The notes under the pieces were generated by a model. That model did no database searches, was not told where the DNA came from, and saw only the letters and a program-made list of their open reading frames with translations. Source: an uncultured Clostridia bacterium (GTDB lineage: Bacteria > Bacillota > Clostridia > TANB77 > CAG-508). From it: a DNA stretch of 64,000 bases. The stretch is from positions 870-64,869 of the forward strand of contig CALXEX010000001.1 in NCBI GenBank assembly GCA_944387445.1, read 5' to 3'. Below are positions 44,679 through 57,532 of the stretch, one piece after another (position 1 is the stretch's first letter; each line of letters begins with the position of its first letter). A program made the translations under genes and the position numbers.

Positions 44679-47600
44679 TTATTCTACCGTATAAATTTGC
44701 ATATTGATTGTTGCATCTTCTGGTACACCATACTCCCTTAAGAACTTCTTTAAATCAAATTCATTATTTGTAACATAATTTGATTTAAATTCTGCTCCAT
44801 TAAGCACTACTTTTATTGGTGCATTATCTATATTATTTCCTGTGTATATAGTAATTTCTGCATTATTTGCGATATTGATATTTTTACCTTTATCACTTAA
44901 TAATACCGTTCCTTTACCAGTAACAGTTCTTAAGTTATGTTCTTTATTGATATCTTCGCTTTCTTCAATATCCTTAAAAGCATTTTCCAAATCTTTTGTA
45001 TTATATGCATTAAATATTTTTTCATCATATTGTCCATTTAGTAAATCATCAAGATCATCTGATGCTTTTGTAAATCCTATTGCATATAATTTAGATTTAA
45101 TTCCATTTACTTTTTGATTTCTGATTTCTTTTGCATAATCGTCAACTTTGCTTGAATCACCTTTATTGTTATTTCCATCAGTAATTAATATTGCACTTGT
45201 AACAATGTCTTTATCAACTTGTGATTTTACCTTCTCTTTTGCTACTTTTAATCCTGATGCGATATTAGTTCCTGATTGTAATCCTGGTTTTGTTACTTTA
45301 TATCCGATGTAGCTTGACGTTTTGTCAAGAATTTGTAATAGGTCAACATCTATCACATAAGTTCCATCTCCATTGTCTTTAAATTTGCTCTTATCTGAAT
45401 ATGAACTTCCTTTACCATTATCTTCAAATATCTTTTTAAATGCTTTTTCAGGATCTTTTTGTTTACTGCAATATTCTGCAAAGTCAATTGCTGCATTATA
45501 TTGTGTTTCAGTAAATCTGTATCTATATTGATCTTTTACTTTTTCTGGATCTGTCATAAATCCTGTATTTAGTACGACTCCATCACAGAATCCTACAATT
45601 GCAATTGAGCGTTTTTCTCCAATATTATCTCCTAAATATGATTCTACGAAATTATCTAATGCTGTTTTTAATTGATACCATCTTGTATTTTGATATCCAC
45701 CTGTTGCTAACACATCAGTTTCATCCTTACTTGCATCTACTTTTGAGCCTAAACTTAATGTCATATCTACTACTAAAACAACACTTTGTTGACCCAATTC
45801 TGTTTTTGTTTCGTAAATATTAATTTCTTTCATTGCATTATTAGTAATTTTCTCTGAAGTATTTCCTTCACCATCTGTTGCTTGATTTGTGATTGTTGTT
45901 CCTAATGCTTCATTCATAACTTTTACTGTAAATGTAATTGTTACTTTTCCATTTCCTGGTACAGATAATTCTAATTTACCATTCTTCATGTCTTCTATTT
46001 GAGCGTCAGATAATTTTGTTGTTTCTCCACCAGTTGTTGTTACACGAATACCATCTTCGGTTAATTCTGTATTTGCTGGTATTTCTTCTTTAACTGTTGT
46101 CTTACCTGGTACTGGTGAGTTATTTTCTAATACAACCTTGTAAGTAATGGTTGATCCGACTTTTATCTCTTTACCATTTGTATCTGAATATTTATGGATT
46201 TCAATATCAGATTTCATGTTTGCAGTTATAATAGCGGTTGCATCTTTTTCTATTGGTGTTGTTGGATCTTCTCCTTCTGTTCTATTTTCTGCATTACCTG
46301 TCATTGTAGCAATATTTTCAATTGGCAATGTATCTTTATCTGTATTATCTCTATCCATACTTCCTATTTCATAAGTTACAACAACTTCTACAGTTTCTCC
46401 TGGTTCTAATGTTGCTTTTTGTCCTTCTAATAAGTCTTCTCCTTCTATTTTAGCTGGATTGTTTATTGTAATATTTGTTCCTGCTGGTAATACTGTTGCA
46501 CTTACGACTGTTACATCTCTGTCATCTGTTAGTTTGAAATCTTTTATGGTAATATTTCCAGAGTTTGTTGCTGTAATTTTGTAAGTTAATACATCTGTTT
46601 TATTAGCTTTATCATTATATGTGATTGTATTGGTTTCTTTATCTTCTACACCTGGTTTTGTTGGTGTTTTATTAACCTTTGTGATTTCTTTCTTAATTGA
46701 AGATTCAAGGTCATAATCTACCATAACGGTTGCTGTACTTTCTTCTTCAGGTGTTTCCTTACTTGTAACATTTGCTGTATTAGACATTTCATCTACGTTG
46801 GCTACATCAGATAATTGTACTTTATAAGATAATGTTAAGATATAACCATCATTAGGTTCTATGGTTGTTGATACATTTGCTGTATTTAATAAGTTATCAT
46901 TTATATTGTCAGTTGATTTATTAACATTTTTTGGTGTTCCCATTTCACCATTATCAATAGGTGTCACACTTACAATGTTAACTAGTCTTTCATCTGTTAC
47001 ATTTACATCATTTAATGTTACATTTCCTTCATTTTTTACCACAATGTTGTAAATGATAGTATCTCCATTATTTACTGCTTGTGAATCATATACTGTCTCT
47101 GTTCCTTTTTCAGTAACTTTATTTTGATCTATAATATTTGGTGTTTGTGTTCCGTTAAGAATAACTTGTTCAGCTGTCTTTTTAATGGTTATGTCTGGTA
47201 CTTCACGTCTATTGGTTATGTCATAACTTGTTACTGTTGCTTTATAACCTACAACTTCATCTTCTGAAACTGTATACTTAATTTCTTTTCCATTTGAATA
47301 TTTCGGAACATCTTCAAATGTATATTCCCAGTTGTCACTTTCTTTTACTATTTTTGATTGAACGATATTGTCATTTGCTAATAAATTAACTTTTATTTCT
47401 TCTGGTCTTTTTCCATCATGGTTATTAACATCATCCCAAGTTTTTTGACCATGAATATCGATTGTTTCTGGAGTATATTTATTAATCAAATTGTATTTGT
47501 TTTCTGGGTCTACTGATACTGTATATTTAGATTCAGGAATTGTTTCTTCTGCAATTTGATATTCAATTTCTACTCCATTTTCATATTTTGGTACATTTGC

Positions 47601-50600
47601 AAAACTATATTTCCATTCACCATTTTGGTCTGCTTCTACATCCATTCTAGCATATTCTTTAAATTCTCCTTCTGTTCCGACTCTGTAATTTAAAATAACT
47701 GTAATTTTAGTAGGTCTCTTTCCATCTCTGTTACTATCATCATCCCATTTTTTGGTTCCTTCAATAGTTTGACTTCCTGGCTGAATTGTATTGGTAAAGT
47801 TGTTTCCATCTTGAGTTGTGTCATATCCTGTTACTGCAACTTCTCTTACTGAATATTTATATTCTTTTCCTGTCTCTAAGTTGTATCTTGGTAATCCCGT
47901 AAAGCTATATGTTCCATTTCCTGTTACGGTTGTTGTGGTTGCTTCTGGTGTTGTTGGGTTTCCATCTCTTAATAATTCAATCGTTGCTGTTAATGTACTA
48001 GGATCTTCTGGTGTTACCCATGTCTTTGTTCCACTAATTCCAGCTGTATATTCTTGTTTGATGATATTTGTAAAGTCGTTTCTAACTTGATTTGTGTCAT
48101 ATCCTGGTACTGGTACTTCTTTTACTGAATATGTATATTCGTGTCCATCTGTTAAATCATATTTAGGTAAATTGTTAAAGCTATATGTTCCATTTCCTGT
48201 TACGGTTGTTGTGGTTGCTTCTGGTGTTGTTGGTTCTCCATCTCTTAATAATTCAATCGTTGCTGTTAATGTATTAACATCTTCTACTGGTGTTATCCAT
48301 GTCTTTGTTCCACCAATACTTGTTGTTGCATTTTCATCTATATTCGTAAAATTGTTTTCATCTTTTAGAGTGGTAAATCCGTCTACTATTAGTTCTTTTA
48401 CAGAATATGTATATTCGTGTCCATCTGTTAAGTCATATTTGTCTAATTTATTAAATGCATATGTGTTATTTCCTGTTACTGTTGTTGTCGTTGGTGGAGT
48501 TGTTGGTTCTCCATCTCTTAATAATTCGATGGTTGCTGTTAATGTATTGACATTTTTATCTGTAATCCATTTCTTTTCTCCACTAATTTGTTCATATTCT
48601 TTAATGACAGTATCTTCAGTTTGATTTGTTGGTGTTCCATCTACTTTTGCATCAGCATTTCTAATAACTTTTGTATCTGTTCCTGTAAATGGATTTACAC
48701 GAACAGAGAATGTTACAGTAGCTGTTCCACCGTTTTCAGCAACAGTTACATCAATTCCCTCATTTAATTGTTTTTCTTCATAATTTCCTTGATTATTCAC
48801 TTTGATTGAATCTGGAACAAGTGTTGTTCCTTCTGGTACTGTATCAGATACTTTTACAGTTCCAGCTGTTTCTCCATGATTTGTTAATGTAATTGTATAT
48901 GTAATCACATCTAATTCATGAAGCTCTTTTCCTTCATAAGCACTTGATTTTACTGCTGTTATATTGGCTACTTTTGTTTCTTCTGAAGGTACTGGTTCTT
49001 CAGGTGTATTTGGATCTTCTGTAATATATGCTGTATTTTGAACTTTTGATGTGTAGTCATTTTCTACTGTTTTTTCTACAGCTGTTACTACAATTTCTAC
49101 TTTAACTGTTTTTTCGCCTGGCACAGCAATAGAATAGTTTCCACTTGTTAATTGTGCTTCTGTTATTGTAGTTTGTTCATTACCTTCACCATCAAACAAT
49201 GTTGCACTTTCAAATTCTGTTCCATTAGGTGTTGAATCTCTTAATATAACTGTTCCTGCTTGGTTTCCTTTATTAGTTAATTCAATTGTATATTTAATTT
49301 GTTCTCCTACTTTAACTGATGTTTTGTCAGCCTTCTTCGTAGCAGTGATATCTACTGTGTTTACTTCTTCTGTATCTGTTGGTTTTTCATTATCTCCAAT
49401 CAATGCCACATTTGCTATTACACCATCAATATTGGTTACTTCTACTGAGAATACAACTTTTGCCGTCGAATTTTCTGCTACATCTACTAAAATGCCAGAA
49501 ATTAATTCATCAGCTGAGTATGTTTTATCTCCTACTGTCACATTTCCGTGCATTTTTGCATTTTTTAATATGTTTGCTAACTCTTTATCTTTTACTATGA
49601 TACTTCCTGGTACTTTACCTGTATTTTCTACAGATATTGTATATGTAATAATATCTCCAACTTTTGCTACATTAACTGGTGTTCCTTTTCTTGTAATCAC
49701 ACTTGTTTTATCTGTTTTAATGATTGATGTTTCTGTTGGATTTCCTTCATTACTTTCTTCACCATTAGCGATAGCAACATTTGAAATTGTTCCTGTTGCA
49801 TCATCATTAACTCTTACTGTAAATTCTACTGTTGTTGTTCCTTTAACCTCTTCTGTTGATGCATCTACATCTACTAACCATCTTAAAGATGTTACATTAC
49901 CTTCTGCATCTGTAAATGTTTCCACATCTCCCATACTAGATACATATGTTGTACCTTCTGGTATTGCGTCTGTTACATAGATTCTCTCTATTTTTTCATT
50001 TGTTTTGTTTTGTACAGTAATCGTATATGTAATAGTTTCTCCAGGTTGAACCAATGTACTTCCTGATTGTGTTGTAGCTGTTTTGGTTACTGCAACATCT
50101 GTTGGTTCTACTGAATCAATATTACTGTATGCACTAGCAAATGATGCTTGCAATTCTCTTGGTGTCCAAATTTTATCTTCACCTTCTGCTACTAATCTTT
50201 CAGGAATTGTTACTGTTTCTTCTCTTGAAATGGTTGTTTCTTGAATATTGTCTGTTGTTGTAGTTATTCCTGTTTCTCCTGTTGTTGTACCTGTTGTTGT
50301 TCCAGTAGCTCCAGTTGTACCTGTTGCTCCTGTTCCAGCAGTACCTTGGTTAGCCCCTCCAGTAGTTGTTGTGTCTGCATCTGCTGTTTCAGTTGGTTCA
50401 GTTGTTGCTGGTTCTGTTCCTTCTGTTGCTTGCTCCTCAGCACTTTGGGTTGCTGGCTCTCCTGACTGTTCTTGTGTATCAGTCGTTGTTGGTTGTTCTT
50501 CTTGTGTTGTTCCAGTTGTTTGTTCATTGTAGCTTGCTAAATCTGTAGCTTCTGTTGTACCTCTATTTTTCAAGAATACTACAGTACCTACAATTGCTGC

Positions 50601-50672
50601 TATTAATAATACCGCTATAATGACAATTGCTACAATTGTTTTTTTGTCTGGCACTTTTGTATAACCTGCCAT
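44679..50672 (-). CDS. Giant surface protein: N-terminal TM anchor, Thr-rich stalk, multiple DUF11 repeats, five CnaB-type domains, further DUF11-like repeats and a C-terminal vWA domain
   Basis: 1997-aa ORF. Anchor is IVAIVIIAVLLIAAIVGTVVFL. DUF11 pattern is PGETITYTITVQN...V.D.IPEGTTYV. CnaB pattern is LTATIELLRDGEPTTP...YTYSVKE. vWA MIDAS-like motifs are VVLVVDMTLSLG and AILITDGNNN. No C-terminal LPXTG seen. Confidence 0.85.
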   Translation of the reverse strand: MAGYTKVPDKKTIVAIVIIAVLLIAAIVGTVVFLKNRGTTEATDLASYNEQTTGTTQEEQPTTTDTQEQSGEPATQSAEEQATEGTEPATTEPTETADADTTTTGGANQGTAGTGATGTTGATGTTTGTTTGETGITTTTDNIQETTISREETVTIPERLVAEGEDKIWTPRELQASFASAYSNIDSVEPTDVAVTKTATTQSGSTLVQPGETITYTITVQNKTNEKIERIYVTDAIPEGTTYVSSMGDVETFTDAEGNVTSLRWLVDVDASTEEVKGTTTVEFTVRVNDDATGTISNVAIANGEESNEGNPTETSIIKTDKTSVITRKGTPVNVAKVGDIITYTISVENTGKVPGSIIVKDKELANILKNAKMHGNVTVGDKTYSADELISGILVDVAENSTAKVVFSVEVTNIDGVIANVALIGDNEKPTDTEEVNTVDITATKKADKTSVKVGEQIKYTIELTNKGNQAGTVILRDSTPNGTEFESATLFDGEGNEQTTITEAQLTSGNYSIAVPGEKTVKVEIVVTAVEKTVENDYTSKVQNTAYITEDPNTPEEPVPSEETKVANITAVKSSAYEGKELHELDVITYTITLTNHGETAGTVKVSDTVPEGTTLVPDSIKVNNQGNYEEKQLNEGIDVTVAENGGTATVTFSVRVNPFTGTDTKVIRNADAKVDGTPTNQTEDTVIKEYEQISGEKKWITDKNVNTLTATIELLRDGEPTTPPTTTTVTGNNTYAFNKLDKYDLTDGHEYTYSVKELIVDGFTTLKDENNFTNIDENATTSIGGTKTWITPVEDVNTLTATIELLRDGEPTTPEATTTTVTGNGTYSFNNLPKYDLTDGHEYTYSVKEVPVPGYDTNQVRNDFTNIIKQEYTAGISGTKTWVTPEDPSTLTATIELLRDGNPTTPEATTTTVTGNGTYSFTGLPRYNLETGKEYKYSVREVAVTGYDTTQDGNNFTNTIQPGSQTIEGTKKWDDDSNRDGKRPTKITVILNYRVGTEGEFKEYARMDVEADQNGEWKYSFANVPKYENGVEIEYQIAEETIPESKYTVSVDPENKYNLINKYTPETIDIHGQKTWDDVNNHDGKRPEEIKVNLLANDNIVQSKIVKESDNWEYTFEDVPKYSNGKEIKYTVSEDEVVGYKATVTSYDITNRREVPDITIKKTAEQVILNGTQTPNIIDQNKVTEKGTETVYDSQAVNNGDTIIYNIVVKNEGNVTLNDVNVTDERLVNIVSVTPIDNGEMGTPKNVNKSTDNINDNLLNTANVSTTIEPNDGYILTLSYKVQLSDVANVDEMSNTANVTSKETPEEESTATVMVDYDLESSIKKEITKVNKTPTKPGVEDKETNTITYNDKANKTDVLTYKITATNSGNITIKDFKLTDDRDVTVVSATVLPAGTNITINNPAKIEGEDLLEGQKATLEPGETVEVVVTYEIGSMDRDNTDKDTLPIENIATMTGNAENRTEGEDPTTPIEKDATAIITANMKSDIEIHKYSDTNGKEIKVGSTITYKVVLENNSPVPGKTTVKEEIPANTELTEDGIRVTTTGGETTKLSDAQIEDMKNGKLELSVPGNGKVTITFTVKVMNEALGTTITNQATDGEGNTSEKITNNAMKEINIYETKTELGQQSVVLVVDMTLSLGSKVDASKDETDVLATGGYQNTRWYQLKTALDNFVESYLGDNIGEKRSIAIVGFCDGVVLNTGFMTDPEKVKDQYRYRFTETQYNAAIDFAEYCSKQKDPEKAFKKIFEDNGKGSSYSDKSKFKDNGDGTYVIDVDLLQILDKTSSYIGYKVTKPGLQSGTNIASGLKVAKEKVKSQVDKDIVTSAILITDGNNNKGDSSKVDDYAKEIRNQKVNGIKSKLYAIGFTKASDDLDDLLNGQYDEKIFNAYNTKDLENAFKDIEESEDINKEHNLRTVTGKGTVLLSDKGKNINIANNAEITIYTGNNIDNAPIKVVLNGAEFKSNYVTNNEFDLKKFLREYGVPEDATINMQIYTVE
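47790..48600. repeat. Three tandem ~273-280-nt near-identical coding repeats (CnaB-type domains)
   Basis: Long identical runs recur near 47845, 48118 and 48398, for example ccatctcttaataattcaatcgttgctgttaatgta and ctatatgttccatttcctgttacggttgttgtggttgcttctggtgttgttgg. Confidence 0.85.
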
Positions 50673-50687
50673 CTTAATTCCTCCCTT

Positions 50688-51275
50688 TTACTCAATTTGT
50701 TTTGCTTTCAGTATTAATCGTTCTCTATTTCCGTTTGTACATGTAATGAGTGTTACTTCTCTTACCGTTTCATCATTTGTAGCTAGAATACGAACATCAT
50801 TTGGATCTGTAACAAATATATCGTAAATTTCGTATTGCATGGTTGTTTTTGTTAAATCTGTTAATTCTACAATATCACCAATTTCTAGATTTTTTGTTTT
50901 TCCAAACATGGTTCCATTGTAGTTATTATGTCCTGCAATTGACAAATTTCCGTAATCATTTACATTTCCACCCCAGTATCTCACAATGCCATATCGCATT
51001 GGTTCTTTTGTTTCTTCTGGGTTTGAAGTTTCTATTGCTAATATTGGATATTGAATATCAATTTTAGGGATTGTAACAATTCCTATGACATCATATCCAT
51101 TTAATTGTACTGTTTCGCTATCTTGTATTTCTACATTTGAAAAAGTCTCAAGTACTTCTTGATTTTCTTTTTCATTTTCCATGCTTTTCCATTGTTTCAT
51201 TGCAATTAATGCAATAATTACAATAGCACCTAATAATAATATGATAAATATGGCTCTATAAATTTTTAGTTTCAT
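50688..51275 (-). CDS. Sortase (small, membrane-anchored, class not assigned)
   Basis: 195-aa ORF with an N-terminal TM, catalytic His (SIAGHN), TLITC Cys motif and downstream Arg (RERLIL). The start overlaps the upstream stop (TAATG). Confidence 0.85.
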   Translation of the reverse strand: MKLKIYRAIFIILLLGAIVIIALIAMKQWKSMENEKENQEVLETFSNVEIQDSETVQLNGYDVIGIVTIPKIDIQYPILAIETSNPEETKEPMRYGIVRYWGGNVNDYGNLSIAGHNNYNGTMFGKTKNLEIGDIVELTDLTKTTMQYEIYDIFVTDPNDVRILATNDETVREVTLITCTNGNRERLILKAKQIE

Positions 51276-52282
51276 TATTTATCCTCTTTTTTGTTTAGCT
51301 TTTTCATTCTTGCAAAAACAATAATTAAAGCAATTACTATCATTGCTAAAGCTACAAATAATATAATGCTATCCCCTGTGATAGGTAGTTTTGCTGTTTC
51401 TTGAACAGTTTTTGTTTCTTGTTTTTCTGGTTCAACTTCCTTATATGGATTGATTTGTGATACCATTAATTTTGCATCTGTTGTTACTGTTGTTCCATCT
51501 TCTGCTGTTTTTCTAATTAAAACAACATATTGATCACCTTCAATAGCATCACTTGGTTGTCTGATTTCATTATCGGTAACAGCTGTCCAAGTAGCTCCTT
51601 CCATTAATTGATTATATAAGGTATAGAATTCAGAGGTTAATTGAATCTTTGAATACATGTCTTTTTGATCATAATTTTCAGAATTTAATTCATCTGCTAA
51701 TTCAACCAATCTGCTATATGGTGTATTGTCAGTCACTTTTGTTAGTTGGTATTCATATGTTGCATTGTCTGTATCTGTAATTCTTAACCCACCAACTGTA
51801 AGTGTTGTTTGAACACCATTAATCTCTTCGTTGATTTCTTCTAATTTTTCAACGGTTTCTGTACTAATTCTTTTGGTTGTGTTTTCAACATACTCCATGT
51901 CTGTCTTATCTAGGGCGTTTGATAAATCAAGTTCAAGTACTTCTGTTGATTCTTGACCATCATATTTTACATAAAGATATGTTGTATCTCCTGTAACAGC
52001 ATTTGCATCAATTTGTGCTACATAATTTCCTTCTCCATCTCTTGCTGTTACAAAGTCCAAATCTTGTTCTGGTGTACTTGCACTGTTAGATACTGCAGAA
52101 GCAAAATTTGTTTGCATTAATTCTTGAATATATACTATATATTCTGTATCACCTTGCTCATCAGTATTACTGATTATTTGAATATTTTCTTCATTTGTAA
52201 CTGCTAAAACTATCATAGGTACTAGCATAAGTATAATGAATAAAACGATAGCACCCGTAAGTTTTGCTTTAAAACTCTTCAT
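51275..52282 (-). CDS. LPITG cell-wall-anchored surface protein
   Basis: 335-aa ORF with a signal peptide and a C-terminal sorting signal: LPITG, a hydrophobic helix, then RMKKLNKKEDK. Confidence 0.8.
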   Translation of the reverse strand: MKSFKAKLTGAIVLFIILMLVPMIVLAVTNEENIQIISNTDEQGDTEYIVYIQELMQTNFASAVSNSASTPEQDLDFVTARDGEGNYVAQIDANAVTGDTTYLYVKYDGQESTEVLELDLSNALDKTDMEYVENTTKRISTETVEKLEEINEEINGVQTTLTVGGLRITDTDNATYEYQLTKVTDNTPYSRLVELADELNSENYDQKDMYSKIQLTSEFYTLYNQLMEGATWTAVTDNEIRQPSDAIEGDQYVVLIRKTAEDGTTVTTDAKLMVSQINPYKEVEPEKQETKTVQETAKLPITGDSIILFVALAMIVIALIIVFARMKKLNKKEDK

Positions 52283-52598: not shown

Positions 52599-53702
52599 TT
52601 AAACAATTTCATAGTCTAACAACTCTACTTGATTACTTATAAAGCTCACATCTTTTCCTGTCTCTTTTCCTAAATCCGTAGATAAATATTTTTTATTATC
52701 ATCAGCAAAAACCGTAACAATACTTTCTATTTTATTTTCATCTAAAACTTTCTCTCCATTTCTTTCTACTTTTCCTTCCACATTTTCCTCAAATCTTTCT
52801 TGTATCAATACAGCACCTATCAAATTTGCACCTGATGAAATGCCCACACCTAATCCTAATTCTTTTGCCAACTTTCTTGTCATATTGATGGCATCCTCAT
52901 CATTGATTAATATGATATCTTTTTCAATGATATTTTCATTTCTTTTAAATATATCTGGTACAAAATCATCCCCAATACCTTCTATCTTATGTTGTTCTAG
53001 GATTTTGTTATGCGACAAAATTCCCATTCTTTCTTCCTGTAACGCTTCTTTCCCTTGTTTTTCGACGTTCATAGAATTTGACAATATCGGCATTTTTTCT
53101 GGTTCTAATGCATATATTTTTATGTGATTATTTGCTTCTTTCAATCGCTTTCCTATCCCGATTAATGTTCCACCTGTTCCTACACCAGAAACAAATCCGC
53201 CAATTTTCTTTTCTTCTAATTGCTCTAAAATTTCTTTTCCTGTTGTTTCATAATGTGCTAATATGTTATCTTCGTTTTCAAATTGATTTGCTAAAAAACC
53301 ATTTAGGTCTTTTGCGAGTTTTTTTGCCTCTTCTACACATTTTATAAAACCGCCTTCTTCTTTTGAAATCAATCTTATATTGGCACCATATAATTTCATC
53401 AATTCAATTCTTTCTTTGCTTGCCCAGTCTGGCATAAAAATATATACAGGATGCTTATAGTAGGCACCTAATGCTGATAAAGAAATTCCTGTATTTCCAC
53501 TTGTTGCTTCTATAATTGGCATTCCGTCTTTTAATATACCCTTTTCTTTTGCATTTTTTATAATATAATAGGCTACCCTATCTTTTATACTACCTGTTAT
53601 ATTATACATTTCTAGTTTTACATATACATTACTTTCTTTTCCTTTATATGTATATTTGATTTTTATCATTGGTGTGTTACCAATTAATGTATGATTCTTC
53701 AT
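52599..53702 (-). CDS. cysK: Cysteine synthase / O-acetylserine sulfhydrylase-family PLP enzyme with two insertions
   Basis: 367-aa ORF with GNTPMIKI, PLP-lysine SIKDR, SGNTGISLS and GVGTGGT. It carries about 20 extra residues before HKIEGIGDDF and about 18 extra before the C-terminal strand. Confidence 0.75.
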   Translation of the reverse strand: MKNHTLIGNTPMIKIKYTYKGKESNVYVKLEMYNITGSIKDRVAYYIIKNAKEKGILKDGMPIIEATSGNTGISLSALGAYYKHPVYIFMPDWASKERIELMKLYGANIRLISKEEGGFIKCVEEAKKLAKDLNGFLANQFENEDNILAHYETTGKEILEQLEEKKIGGFVSGVGTGGTLIGIGKRLKEANNHIKIYALEPEKMPILSNSMNVEKQGKEALQEERMGILSHNKILEQHKIEGIGDDFVPDIFKRNENIIEKDIILINDEDAINMTRKLAKELGLGVGISSGANLIGAVLIQERFEENVEGKVERNGEKVLDENKIESIVTVFADDNKKYLSTDLGKETGKDVSFISNQVELLDYEIV

Positions 53703-53969: not shown

Positions 53970-55199
53970 TTATTTTTCTCTTCGAATAATCCAATCTTTT
54001 TCACATTTGATTGGTACTTTCATTAACACTTTTTGTCCTTTTACCCCTGGACTAACAGCTTGTATTTCTTCTTTTGTATCATAATCCCATAATTTATCAA
54101 TAGTAAATGGTACAGGTTCTAGCTTGTATGGAATCAAAATCTCCATTTTATCTCCAACTTGAAGTTTATTTTTTATCTCAATAACAGATTTTTCTTCATC
54201 ATATTCTACGACTTTTCCTCCAAATTCATACTTTTCATTGTATTGCCTTCCACCATATTCTTGTATATCCTTGTTATTTCTATCGTTGAAATAAAATGTG
54301 GTTAACCCTCTTGTTTTTACTTTTTCTAATTCTTTCAAATATTTTGTATAATCATAATGTTCTGGGTCTTTTTCATAGTCATCAATAGCATTTCTATAAG
54401 CCCCTATGACACTTGCTAGATAATATTCTGTTTTTAATCTTCCTTCTATCTTTAAACTATCTACTCCCATATCAATAATTTCTGGGATTTCTTTGATTAA
54501 GCACAAATCTTTTGAAGAAAAAATGCTTGTTCCATATTCACTTGTTTCTATTGGCATCAATTCTCCTGGATTGTTTTTTTCCTCTGCATATAAATTATAT
54601 GACCATCTACAACTTTGTGCACAATCTCCTAAATTTGCACTTCTACATGACATAAAATCACTTAAGAAACATCTTCCCGAAAAAGCAAAACAAATGGCAC
54701 CATGAATAAAGATTTCAATTTCCATCCCTTCTGGTTTATTTTCCATGATATATTTTAGCTGTTTCTTATTCATTTCTCTTGCCATAATCATTCTCTTGGC
54801 GCCATTGTGATACCAAAAGTTTGCTGAATGAAGACTTACAATATTGGCTTGCGTGCTCACATTGATGGCTACACTTGGTGCATATTGTTTTAATACTTCT
54901 ATAACCCCTCCGTCTGCTGCAATAATGCCATCTGGATTTAATACTTCTAATTTTTTTGCCATTTCTATGATTTCTTCATATTTTTCATCCCAAGCAAATA
55001 TATTTAAAGTTACATACACTTTTTTTCCAATACTGTGTGCATATTTGATTGTTTTTTCTAAATCATCATCTTGCATATCTGCTCTTGTTCTTAATGATAA
55101 TGATGAGGTTCCACAATATACCGCATCTGCTCCATACAAAAAGGCAATTTTGGCTTTTTCATAGGAACCTGCTGGTGCTAATAATTCTACTTTTTTCAC
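53970..55199 (-). CDS. Peptidase U32 family protein (TrhP/YrrO-like)
   Basis: VELLAPAGSYEKAKIAFLYGADAVY plus Cys-rich CRSANLGDCAQSCRW. The probable GTG start at 55199 is preceded by AAGAGGAAA. Confidence 0.8.
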   Translation of the reverse strand: MKKVELLAPAGSYEKAKIAFLYGADAVYCGTSSLSLRTRADMQDDDLEKTIKYAHSIGKKVYVTLNIFAWDEKYEEIIEMAKKLEVLNPDGIIAADGGVIEVLKQYAPSVAINVSTQANIVSLHSANFWYHNGAKRMIMAREMNKKQLKYIMENKPEGMEIEIFIHGAICFAFSGRCFLSDFMSCRSANLGDCAQSCRWSYNLYAEEKNNPGELMPIETSEYGTSIFSSKDLCLIKEIPEIIDMGVDSLKIEGRLKTEYYLASVIGAYRNAIDDYEKDPEHYDYTKYLKELEKVKTRGLTTFYFNDRNNKDIQEYGGRQYNEKYEFGGKVVEYDEEKSVIEIKNKLQVGDKMEILIPYKLEPVPFTIDKLWDYDTKEEIQAVSPGVKGQKVLMKVPIKCEKDWIIRREK

Positions 55200-55307
55200 T
55201 TTTTTTCCTCTTTTCTTTATTTTCTCATATTTACGCTTGACAAATTTTATCATAAAATTGCCTTTTTTACAACAATTTTCTAAATTCTTCTATTTTATTT
55301 AAATATG

Positions 55308-55316
55308 TGATATAAT
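55308..55316 (+). promoter_or_regulatory. Extended -10 promoter element of the 717-aa gene
   Basis: TGTGATATAAT is the same 11-mer as at the sortase operon promoter. It lies about 20 nt upstream of the ATG at 55335. Confidence 0.45.
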
Positions 55317-55334
55317 AGTAACGAGGTGAATAAA

Positions 55335-57485
55335 ATGGCTTTTAATCCAAAAAGTAAAGAAGAATTTTTAAATTCTTTAAAAGATATAGAAATCTATCGA
55401 CCACCAATAGAAAATTTTATTGAAAACTTTGTACCTGTTGGATTGTCTAATTTATATGAACTTTTTCTAAAATTAAAAGATGTTCCTCTTACTACTGCTC
55501 AATTTAATCTTCTTGCTAATAAAGTTTCTTCTAATTATTCAGAAAATGTTTCTAACTTATTGCATAATCCAATTACCAGTGTTCAAATTGATCAATTATT
55601 AGAACTGCTAAAACAGGAATATCTTACCATGGTTACATCTAACAATCAAAATCATCTATCAGAAGAAGAGCAATCTCATCTAACACAGATTATCAATAAA
55701 CAATGTCCAGAAATCTTTTTAGATTTAATTGAAACCCCTGTTAGTGTTGAGGAATTTAAAAAGCAAAAAGAATTTATAAATAATGCTGTTTCCAATCTTT
55801 TAGAACAATATTATCAACAAACCTCTCCTCATGCTCAGCAAAACTCATATTATTTAGGTAGTGCTATTTATTTGATTTATCGAAAATTAAATCCAGAACT
55901 TTCTATTTCTATTTCAGGGCGTGAAAAAGGTAGAAAAAGTTTTAATGACAATACGAATAAAGAATTAGATAAAAGTATAAAACACATTCTCCCTAGCGAT
56001 GTAAAAACAGGAATTACACTTTCTGATATGCAAAACCATATTGTTTCTAATTCAGAAAATCCAAATAATTTTACAGATAAAACCAATTCTGATTTTTCTG
56101 GTTTTACCATTGTGTTAAATTATATTGATGATGCCCTTCACCTTGATGAGAATGACCCTGAAAATGCAGAACTTTTAAAACTAAAAAAACAAGCAACTGA
56201 AAATTTAAGATTTTTACATAGTGTAAAAAATTATTTAAATGCAAATGATATTTTTATGACACAAGAGGAATATTTTCAAGTATATATAGAATTGTTACAG
56301 CACTTACAAGATAGTACTTATCCAGAGTGCACACATGAAATAAAAGAAGGTTCTTATTCTTCTAGATTAGAATATGCTATTGCAAATTATAAGAAAAATA
56401 TGGAAGCAAATTCATTTGCTCCTAATGCAACAGATGCTGAAATAGAAGAATTGTACAATCTTACTGATTGTTTAAAAAGAAGATTATATGATAAATTGCA
56501 AAACGAAATGTTAAGAATTACTTTCCCACATGTACTAGAAGACCCCATACTTACTGACAAATTTAAAATAAAAGGACATTTTGTTAAATTTGTCAAAAAA
56601 GAAAATGGTTTTTGTGCAATTTATTTTGAATTAGTTGACGCTTTTGGTCGAAAAACTGAAGTACAACTTCAATCTAGTATGCGATATAAAGAGACAAAAA
56701 ATGGACTTTCTACGCATAATGACATGCCTAATAAAAAAGTTGATATTAAACAATTTTTTGAATTAACAAACGATCGAAATGATCCTGATCTTCTTAACCA
56801 TTATCTTTCATTATTGGGAAGAACTTCAAAAAAACAAGAAGAAGATTTAAAGACGAAATTAAAGGAGGAAGAAGAAAAAATGTCTTCCCCTACGAGAACA
56901 CCAGCAGAAAAAAGAAACTCAAACATTACAATCCAAAGATTGCAAAAAAAGATTGATGCAATTGAAACTGCAAGAGCTAATATTAAAATCAAAGATGAAT
57001 ATATCGAAGAACATGATATGATTGATATGGATAAAACCAAGAAAGAAGAAAATGCTGAAATTATAAATGTAAATGGTGGTCCAATAAAAGTATATAATAC
57101 ACAAACACATAAGCGTGTTACGAAAATGCCAATTGAACAATATCTTCCTATATTTGCAGAATATTTATCTCCTGCTAGTATGAAAGTTATAAGCTCTGCA
57201 CATGCTACTGCTCCTGAGGCACATATTAATAAGAAAGATTTAATAGAAAGTTTCACAGAAATCCTACGAAAAGGAGATGAAATTACTTATCTTTCAGAAT
57301 TATTAATTGACAAGTTAAAAGAAATCTTAAATGTGAAAGATACAAATCAACTTTCTATGGAAGAAATTCTAAGTTATGTAGAAAATACTACAAATGGTTA
57401 TTATGCACCACAAGAAAAATTTTGGGATACGCCTAATGGCAACTCTGAAAATGGAAATGGAGAATATGAGGGTTCAGAAAGATAA
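55335..57485 (+). CDS. Large uncharacterised protein with a degenerate RelA/SpoT-type (small alarmone synthetase-like) nucleotidyltransferase core
   Basis: ISGREKGRKS fits RxKxxxS. DFSGFTIVLNYIDDA resembles DIAGLRIMCQFVDDI of RelQ. KKENGFCAIYFELV resembles KESGYRSYHLVV. TEVQLQS resembles VEIQIRT. A ~150-aa helical insert lies between the 2nd and 3rd motifs, and the N- and C-terminal regions are long and helical. The ATG at 55335 is preceded by GAGGTG. Confidence 0.45.
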   Translation: MAFNPKSKEEFLNSLKDIEIYRPPIENFIENFVPVGLSNLYELFLKLKDVPLTTAQFNLLANKVSSNYSENVSNLLHNPITSVQIDQLLELLKQEYLTMVTSNNQNHLSEEEQSHLTQIINKQCPEIFLDLIETPVSVEEFKKQKEFINNAVSNLLEQYYQQTSPHAQQNSYYLGSAIYLIYRKLNPELSISISGREKGRKSFNDNTNKELDKSIKHILPSDVKTGITLSDMQNHIVSNSENPNNFTDKTNSDFSGFTIVLNYIDDALHLDENDPENAELLKLKKQATENLRFLHSVKNYLNANDIFMTQEEYFQVYIELLQHLQDSTYPECTHEIKEGSYSSRLEYAIANYKKNMEANSFAPNATDAEIEELYNLTDCLKRRLYDKLQNEMLRITFPHVLEDPILTDKFKIKGHFVKFVKKENGFCAIYFELVDAFGRKTEVQLQSSMRYKETKNGLSTHNDMPNKKVDIKQFFELTNDRNDPDLLNHYLSLLGRTSKKQEEDLKTKLKEEEEKMSSPTRTPAEKRNSNITIQRLQKKIDAIETARANIKIKDEYIEEHDMIDMDKTKKEENAEIINVNGGPIKVYNTQTHKRVTKMPIEQYLPIFAEYLSPASMKVISSAHATAPEAHINKKDLIESFTEILRKGDEITYLSELLIDKLKEILNVKDTNQLSMEEILSYVENTTNGYYAPQEKFWDTPNGNSENGNGEYEGSER

Positions 57486-57524
57486 GAAAAAAGCTGATAT
57501 TCTAATCAATATCAGCTTTTTTTC
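57486..57524. terminator. Bidirectional rho-independent terminator
   Basis: 11-bp perfect stem AAGCTGATATT / AATATCAGCTT, flanked by an A-run and a T-run. Confidence 0.8.
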
Positions 57525-57532
57525 TTATTATC

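Follow-up and report, generated by a model that had tools for sequence, protein, structure and literature searches.

RelA/SpoT homolog (RSH) alarmones control growth, persistence, antibiotic tolerance and some phage defenses. A census of 2020, made with hidden Markov models (HMMs) of the canonical domain, recognized 30 small alarmone synthetase (SAS), 11 small alarmone hydrolase (SAH) and 13 long-RSH subfamilies, 54 in total (PMC7229694). In the synthetase (SYNTH) domain of FaRel2, R64, K66 and S70 bind the ATP triphosphate, D90 holds Mg2+, G93, E145 and Q147 read the adenine, and Y128 stacks on the acceptor base (PMC11782079); in RelSeq the catalytic residues are D264 and E323, and the guanosine contacts are Y308, N306 and K305 (PMC7983052). 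The donor adenine is sandwiched by two arginines, that of the RxK motif and that of the DxxGxR motif (PMC11782079, PMC7983052), and RSH acceptors include GTP/GDP/GMP, ATP/ADP/AMP and tRNA (PMC11782079). In this paper we analyze a gene at positions 55335-57485 (+ strand) of a 64,000-nucleotide stretch of DNA (the window) from an uncultured Clostridia bacterium (contig CALXEX010000001.1), the product of which a preliminary description had taken for an atypical RSH-superfamily member. On profile comparisons the gene belongs to an unannotated and highly divergent RSH subfamily, of which it encodes the founding long form, and its product is probably an active enzyme of that new subfamily.

Like RelQ, RelP and RelV, the window protein has RxKxxxS, an Mg2+ Asp, an N-G-aromatic G-loop, ExQ and H...K in the same order, has no hydrolase domain, and is encoded by a chromosomal, monocistronic gene. 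Those synthetases, however, consist of a contiguous SYNTH domain of about 200-250 amino acids (aa), whereas the window protein has 716 aa in five modules, with large N- and C-terminal domains and a core split by an insert of roughly 135 aa between strands 2 and 3. It also has Thr (258), Gln (446) and Tyr (430) in place of Arg, Arg and His, is missed by the Pfam model PF04607, and evolves far faster than its neighbors. Rel, RelA and SpoT are likewise multidomain proteins of about 700 aa, in which further domains stand on either side of a SYNTH core. The best Foldseek matches of the window protein are to their catalytic N-terminal domains (NTDs), and its top PDB sequence matches include RelA. 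In contrast to them, the window protein has no HD signal and, in a Pfam search, no TGS, ZFD or ACT/RRM domain, and none of the canonical SYNTH domains compared has its insert. CapRel(SJ46) is also a single polypeptide with an RSH-type core, a C-terminal extension and fast-evolving accessory regions but no separate antitoxin gene. It differs in that the window protein is acidic, has the insert and an N-terminal domain, and occupies a fixed chromosomal slot across species, with no detected pseudo-Zn-finger, no prophage or defense-island context and no PADLOC match. Residues R64, K66, S70, D90, G93, E145, Q147 and Y128 of FaRel2 correspond to R196, K198, S202, D253, G256, E442, Q444 and F426, respectively, but R95, K74 and R77 are replaced by T258, N206 and K209. 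Unlike Tas1/FaRel and FaRel2, the window protein has neither an antitoxin or immunity gene nor a secretion domain. Judged by these features it resembles an RSH synthetase, yet the SAS (RelQ/RelP), long-RSH and toxic SAS (toxSAS) toxin-antitoxin groups, as they are defined, do not include it. RSH HMMs built on the canonical SYNTH domain miss it, and none of the papers in the collection searched describes an RSH with this insert or architecture.

Profile comparisons demonstrate, at that level, homology to the SYNTH domain and membership of the RSH superfamily. An alignment of the family core (n=72) was compared by hhalign with an alignment of RelA/SpoT SYNTH domains (n=113; seeds E. coli relA and spoT). 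With the insert excised, the two profiles matched at 96.6% (P=6e-10) over 123 columns, with RxKxxxS, Asp, N-G-[F/Y], ExQ and His in register; with the insert left intact the match was 94.1% (P=1.2e-7) and covered only the C half (RelA 133-178). Reversal of either profile gave 0.1-0.2% and P values of 0.26-0.6, a difference which confirms, as far as profile statistics go, that the colinearity of the motifs is beyond chance. Against authentic RSH fragments the family core HMM gave E-values of 2.5e-9 (insert excised) and 1e-7 (insert intact), scaled to a search space as large as the PDB sequence set. In the family profile search E. coli RelA 315-356 was among the top PDB sequence matches, in the C-terminal half, at an E of only about 1.2. 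PF04607 was not matched by the window protein even at E<=10; the protein is therefore a superfamily-level relative outside the present Pfam model. The same Pfam check was positive for 7/47 distant family members, one of them (P0188) at gathering score: it scored 27.6 bits (gathering score 27) in two stretches parted by the insert, and in the search of the full protein library the family profile found it at E=4.3e-7.

The AlphaFold2 (AF2) model of the window protein (pLDDT 83.9) places the predicted secondary structure in the order of the SYNTH fold, a five-stranded sheet with flanking helices, except that a helical module interrupts it. The modules are as follows.

55335-55829, + strand, N-terminal all-helical accessory domain, aa 1-165 (AF2 helices 8-163)
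55830-56144, + strand, N half of the SYNTH-like core, aa 166-270 (AF2: helix; strand 189-197 up to R196; helix 200-216 from near S202; strand 255-264 after D253)
56145-56546, + strand, family-specific helical insert, aa 271-404 (AF2: six helices, 275-409)
56547-56774, + strand, C half of the SYNTH-like core, aa 405-480 (AF2: strands 413-421, 427-434 with NGFCAIY, and 440-447 with EVQLQS; helix 448-456)
56775-56978, + strand, basic helical linker, aa 481-548 (AF2: three long helices; pI 9.4)
56979-57482, + strand, acidic C-terminal alpha/beta domain, aa 549-716 (AF2; pI 4.8)

In Foldseek searches of the PDB, Rel/RelA catalytic regions made up 11/17 top matches, at E 0.2-1.5 and with TM-scores that are low because the 135-residue insert breaks the alignment, a suggestive result without significance; a search of the BFVD viral structures with the whole model gave no match. 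Taken together, the profile-profile match, the reversed controls, the P0188 match to PF04607 and the AF2 order support the view of an atypical superfamily member. Of the profile and structural matches by which this view could be checked, the profile match was obtained and the structural one did not reach significance.

The long extensions on both sides of the core that had been described from the translation are borne out by the model, as is the splitting of the core, but the insert is smaller than the ~150 residues proposed. The span from D253 to N424 is 171 residues; the corresponding span of E. coli RelA is about 43, and the window protein therefore has about 130 extra residues. In the insert-excised alignment the N half of the core covers RelA/SpoT SYNTH positions 46-110. 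The insert, about 135 aa in the window protein, was present at 123-181 aa in 72/72 core sequences and has invariant polar residues (T328, Y329, E335, D386 and K387), which argues that it is a defining, constrained part of the family and not a local accident. It gave no Pfam or PDB match. In two distant members, apparently in the late insert/core-C region, weak matches to MazG (P0174 aa 336-379, P0181 aa 279-329; E 0.03-0.05) were seen. MazG is an all-helical NTP pyrophosphohydrolase fold; we do not believe these matches, which are probably noise.

The N-domain (pI 4.7) is among the fastest-evolving parts, is missing in shorter allelic classes, and had no Pfam or PDB relation in domain and profile searches. 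The idea that it is a decayed HD hydrolase was rejected, since there was no HD/HD_4 match and hhalign against the SpoT/RelA NTD aligned only the C half of SYNTH. The C-domain has invariant residues at Y/L603-604, P613, S621, H623 and F640. Its profile found nothing significant among PDB sequences, and a separate AF2 model of it (pLDDT 72) gave scattered PDB matches (MetRS and others; best E 0.29) that we judged meaningless; neither search found a pseudo-Zn-finger or a known antitoxin fold, although a remote similarity may have escaped them. In P0025, P0026, P0035 and P0037-P0041 a C-terminal beta-hairpin (YELKNIxGKxIKVYxT, alignment columns about 636-662) is duplicated, which suggests that the C-domain holds an expandable repeat.

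The four motifs on which the resemblance had first been noticed lie exactly at the coordinates then given: ISGREKGRKS (aa 193-202, 55911-55940), DFSGFTIVLNYIDDA (aa 253-267, 56091-56135), KKENGFCAIYFELV (aa 421-434, 56595-56636) and TEVQLQS (aa 441-447, 56655-56675). Within and beyond them the putative catalytic elements are:

55920-55940, + strand, R196-x-K198-xxx-S202, predicted donor triphosphate binding (role from FaRel2 R64/K66/S70)
56091-56108, + strand, D253-F-S-G256-F-T258, with the predicted Mg2+ Asp (FaRel2 equivalents D90/G93/R95)
56598-56624, + strand, G-loop K422-E-N424-G425-F426-C-A-I-Y430, predicted acceptor base stacking (aligns with KpNGYqSiH)
56658-56672, + strand, E442-V-Q444-L-Q446, predicted catalytic Glu and adenine-reading Gln (equivalents FaRel2 E145/Q147 and RelSeq E323)
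56715-56735, + strand, H461...K467, equivalent of the AAHWxYK motif (from the family alignment)

Conservation was counted in an alignment of 133 members of at least 400 aa, some of which are without the N half, so that denominators differ. R196, K198 and S202, whose RelA/SpoT counterpart is GRpKHiYS, are present in 104/104 aligned members and D253 in 107/108. In the G-loop, G425 is kept in 130/133, F or Y at position 426 in 132/133, N424 in 113/133 and K422 in 104/133, with Y430 replacing the His of GYxSxH. E442 is invariant (133/133), Q444 occurs in 127/133, H461 in 128/133 and K467 in 122/133; distant members read G-x-AAH at the last motif. Position 258 is T in 75 members, K in 24 and R in 2, and position 446 is Q in 106. 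Family members drift to about 20% identity and yet this catalytic set is frozen, which makes an enzyme far more likely than a pseudoenzyme. The terms degenerate and non-catalytic, which the preliminary description had applied, are thus not favored.

The family is real but rare. A word-indexed search found 50 homologous clusters, 0 of them with a Pfam domain, and a search of 1.84 billion protein representatives clustered at 50% identity gave 152 at E<=1e-3. Five clusters were looked up and "hypothetical protein" was the sole name among them. The 25/25 GTDB species-representative loci are from metagenome-assembled genomes of uncultured gut Clostridia (human, chicken, mouse), and the subfamily is, as far as sampled, restricted to uncultured low-GC gut Clostridia.

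These features suggest how the protein might work. The SYNTH-type fold would be intact but bipartite, with a ~135-aa six-helix module between strand 2 (after the Mg2+ Asp) and strand 3, and the core would be flanked by the acidic helical N-domain, the basic helical linker and the acidic alpha/beta C-domain. As a catalytically competent ATP-dependent 3'-pyrophosphokinase, the protein would hold the ATP triphosphate with R196, K198, S202 and K209 and Mg2+ with D253 and E442, and would read the adenine with E442, Q444 and G256. The acceptor base would stack on F426 of the N-G-F loop, and the beta,gamma-pyrophosphate would pass to the acceptor 3'-OH with release of AMP. The acceptor would most probably be a guanine nucleotide, because the K-x-N-G-aromatic loop is kept, because of the guaB/guaA/NTPase context described below, and because of the acidic surface (the whole protein has a pI of 5.3, unlike tRNA-binding toxSAS); the protein would then be an atypical (p)ppGpp/pGpp-type alarmone synthetase. 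T258, in place of the lost stacking Arg, the insert and the flanking domains would probably make donor binding conditional on regulatory input. We hold the chances to be about even that the protein is an active ATP-dependent pyrophosphokinase of this kind, with a guanine nucleotide as the most probable acceptor and with donor binding gated by the Arg loss, the insert and the flanks.

The neighbors of the gene in the window (53970-58135) are genes for a U32 peptidase on one side and an O-methyltransferase on the other, both on the opposite strand, which resemble TrhP and TrmR in their Pfam domains only. The TrhP/TrmR pair makes tRNA (m)o5U34 and belongs to one operon (yrrMNO) in B. subtilis, and insertion of the gene divides a U32/O-methyltransferase pair that elsewhere forms a unit. 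The same slot, with the TrhP-like U32 peptidase gene divergent and the TrmR-like O-methyltransferase gene convergent, was found at 24/25 species-level loci, and, in loci that extend far enough, NUDIX and then TypA/BipA genes follow downstream.

Several loci carry a further RSH-type gene in the slot. In L024 and L026-L029 a paralog of 392-430 aa lies upstream of the long form on the same strand, with gaps of about 20-50 bp (L024:4726-5940, L026:4620-5912, L027:3626-4834, L028:4701-5903, L029:4715-5911). This short paralog is homologous to the family core, its insert included (hhalign 98%, P=1.4e-13), and keeps canonical GxR, GYxSxH and ExQxR (YRYKSxxSF, DIIGMRLV, GYTSMHF, ELQDRSS). In L032 (4222-5082) and L033 (527-1564), from the genome with P0044, a compact SAS-like gene with GYQGLH, EIQVHT and a weak PF04607 match stands just upstream of the long form. 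The U32/O-methyltransferase slot would therefore collect RSH-type genes of several kinds. A search for canonical RSH genes with an ExQxR[TS] regular expression found none in the window and 29 loci, which cover only about 0.4 Mb. In L020 the ortholog is in two open reading frames (ORFs; 167-484 and 753-2378), either as a pseudogene or through an assembly or frameshift error.

In a second clade (P0043, P0046, L021), whose proteins share about 35% identity with that of the window, the gene is linked to guaB. In three genomes (L021, L034/35, L036/37) the gene begins 12-13 nt after guaB with its own Shine-Dalgarno sequence. The guaB (IMPDH) gene and the long RSH-like gene lie on one strand (L021:4494-7971, L034:4495-7968, L036:98-3556); an NTPase_I-T gene is upstream in L034/L035, and a GMP synthase gene is convergent downstream in L036/L037. 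The arrangement may be a purine-linked operon. Neither guaB, guaA nor the short paralogs are present in the window.

No relatives were found in IMG/VR, among INPHARED phages or among PLSDB plasmids, and the window protein had no match in PADLOC or PHROGs; other members gave one sub-threshold PADLOC stretch and two sub-threshold PHROGs stretches (PHROGs E 0.004-0.005). An origin from a mobile element or defense system was rejected on the grounds that the searches of PADLOC and PHROGs and of phages and plasmids were negative and that the slot lies among housekeeping genes.

Rates of change were estimated pairwise by the Nei-Gojobori method, with some values of synonymous divergence (dS) near saturation. 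In the U32 slot the neighbors are 75-98% identical to those of the window, whereas this protein is 92, 85, 65, 55, 32 and 25% identical. For the gene dS was 0.17-0.94, nonsynonymous divergence (dN) 0.04-0.31 and dN/dS 0.22-0.35, as expected of a real gene under purifying selection; for U32, O-methyltransferase and TypA dS was 0.31-0.86, dN 0.006-0.07 and dN/dS 0.01-0.12. Since dS is of the same order as in the neighbors, the gene appears to have diverged in place and not to have been replaced. In the guaB-linked clade guaB is 97-99% identical between genomes and the target 59-68%, with dN 0.003-0.016 and 0.24-0.31, respectively. Within the protein the core is under the strongest constraint, its C half being among the slowest-evolving parts (dN/dS about 0.09-0.22); the N-domain and linker together reach 0.5-0.64 (N-domain up to 0.64, linker 0.2-0.63), and no sliding 60-codon window had dN/dS above 1. 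Inheritance is chromosomal and vertical within a narrow clade.

Several observations weigh against an active guanine-nucleotide alarmone synthetase. Two basic residues are truly replaced, as had been noticed at the outset: T258 stands for the Arg of DxxGxR, the second donor-adenine-stacking Arg, so that the two-arginine sandwich is incomplete (R196 is present), and Q446 stands for the Arg of ExQxR. With N206 at the position of FaRel2 K74 as well, the protein could bind ATP weakly or use another donor. The window protein alone has no meaningful match in Pfam, NCBIfam or PDB (phmmer), its single-sequence noise matches being AKAP7, RST and SigY at E>0.002 and 2nn5 at E 0.5, and the Foldseek values are not significant. 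Its dN is 6-80 times that of its neighbors, and housekeeping alarmone synthetases are normally well conserved. The guaB linkage is limited to one clade, and the neighbors in the window are tRNA-modification genes on the other strand.

The speed of change would also fit the main rival explanation, that the protein acts in a conflict system as a toxic RSH effector, fused and autoinhibited in the manner of CapRel, with the core held off by the flanks or the insert until a phage or other invader cue activates it, whereupon it would pyrophosphorylate tRNA CCA ends or make (pp)pApp and arrest the cell. Identity falls to 25-65% where U32, O-methyltransferase and TypA keep 75-98%, the dN/dS values exceed those of the neighbors and are highest in the N-domain and linker, domains are gained and lost between allelic classes with the C-terminal hairpin duplicated in some members, and paralogs stand in tandem in the slot (L024, L026-L029, L032/33). 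The rarity of the family (152 clusters) and the alteration of the donor-site Arg that toxSAS antitoxins target would fit as well. We nevertheless regard this explanation as unlikely, though deserving of serious attention, since there is no adjacent antitoxin gene, no PADLOC or PHROGs match for the window protein and no phage or plasmid relative, the slot is among housekeeping genes and not in a defense island, and inheritance looks vertical with no 60-codon window above a dN/dS of 1. Moreover, the protein is acidic, a basic surface for tRNA binding is not seen outside the core and linker, the C-domain gave no match to a pseudo-Zn-finger or known antitoxin fold, and one clade has the guaB operon context. 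An active RSH-fold transferase with another chemistry or substrate, such as (pp)pApp synthesis, a donor other than ATP, or an insert-bound acceptor that is a protein or is not a nucleotide, we consider distinctly improbable. The insert with its invariant T328, Y329, E335, D386 and K387 directly precedes the strands before the acceptor (G) loop, with T258 the donor adenine sandwich has lost one of its halves, Y430 stands instead of the His of GYxSxH, and the acceptor range of known RSH enzymes is broad (PMC11782079); but the FaRel2 equivalents that read adenine (E442, Q444 and G256) are conserved, so that ATP remains the likely donor, and both the retained N424 and aromatic residue 426 of the guanosine loop and the guaB/guaA context point to guanine nucleotides.

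Alternatively, the protein would be a pseudoenzyme of RSH descent, serving as a scaffold or as a nucleotide sensor; it would bind ATP, GTP or an alarmone without pyrophosphate transfer and might regulate a partner, for example the short paralog where present. The long form has lost two basic residues of active synthetases (T258 and Q446) and has N206 for FaRel2 K74, and the canonical motifs kept by the short upstream paralogs (L024-L029) suggest a division of labor. Pseudoenzymes usually lose their metal-binding acids, however, and here D253 and E442 are effectively invariant, as are R196, K198 and S202, despite about 20% identity. Most genomes, that of the window included, carry only the long form, and the core is the part under strongest constraint, and we give a pseudoenzyme only a slender chance. 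A chance resemblance in a low-complexity, AT-rich-encoded helical protein with no relation to RSH would account for the absence of a direct Pfam or PDB match to the single sequence and for the Foldseek result; it is extremely improbable, and is effectively refuted by the hhalign and HMM statistics with their reversed controls and by the transitive PF04607 match of P0188 at gathering score, and the motifs are colinear, in register and the most conserved columns of the family.

On the evidence above, the SYNTH fold would tolerate a 135-residue insertion at a fixed point and would give up one of two donor-stacking arginines with all catalytic residues kept, in a protein that evolves an order of magnitude faster than its neighbors and that in one clade is linked to guaB/guaA. 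For a group of small-genome gut Clostridia the protein would be the missing alarmone synthetase or an alternative one; otherwise it would be a conflict-type effector of a new kind. The family profile can be used by annotators for about 150 protein clusters. A bolder proposal, which we think rather doubtful, is that of a new class of RSH-fold enzymes in which the insert builds a new acceptor pocket or a sensor, and which would make an undescribed nucleotide messenger or act as an invader-triggered, self-contained and fast-evolving pyrophosphokinase sensor-effector that is chromosomally fixed. If true, this proposal would extend RSH biology beyond the 54 subfamilies of 2020 (PMC7229694).

The gene is one of few on the + strand of the window, which has a GC content of ~29%. 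Its boundaries and signals are:

55335-57485, + strand, coding sequence of 716 aa plus stop, ATG start
55308-55316, + strand, putative extended -10 promoter element TGATATAAT, a perfect match read from the sequence
55323-55328, + strand, Shine-Dalgarno sequence GAGGTG, 6 nt ahead of the ATG
57486-57523, both strands, bidirectional intrinsic terminator with a 16-bp stem and T-runs on both strands

The ORF lister called 55326-57485 (+ strand) with a GTG start, but that GTG sits within the Shine-Dalgarno sequence, and the ATG at 55335 agrees with the MAF/MAY N-termini of most full-length homologs. The protein therefore has 716 aa; the ORF first reported stands, and its length of 717 included the stop codon. 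The -10 element is located in the 81-bp gap to the divergent U32-peptidase gene, and the terminator fills the 47-bp gap to the convergent O-methyltransferase gene and is common to both genes. With its own promoter, Shine-Dalgarno sequence and terminator the gene would thus be a self-contained monocistronic unit. Neither gap holds a small ORF, in agreement with the earlier remark that no antitoxin-like gene is adjacent.

Elsewhere in the window, positions 44679-52282 (- strand) hold a surface-protein cluster with three members: a protein of 1997 aa that has a membrane anchor at its N terminus as well as Thr-rich and repeated domains, a sortase in which the TLITC motif occurs, and a protein of 335 aa that bears the sorting signal LPITG. 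Upstream of U32, the PALP (cysteine-synthase-like) gene at 52599-53702 has an internal charged insertion; it is represented by two ORFs in L001 (5268-6246), L002 and L012. Some relatives (L001:11091-13031, L003:3101-5041) have, between the O-methyltransferase and NUDIX genes, a gene for a 646-aa TPR-like protein that is not in the window, and this insertion marks another variable point of an otherwise syntenic block.

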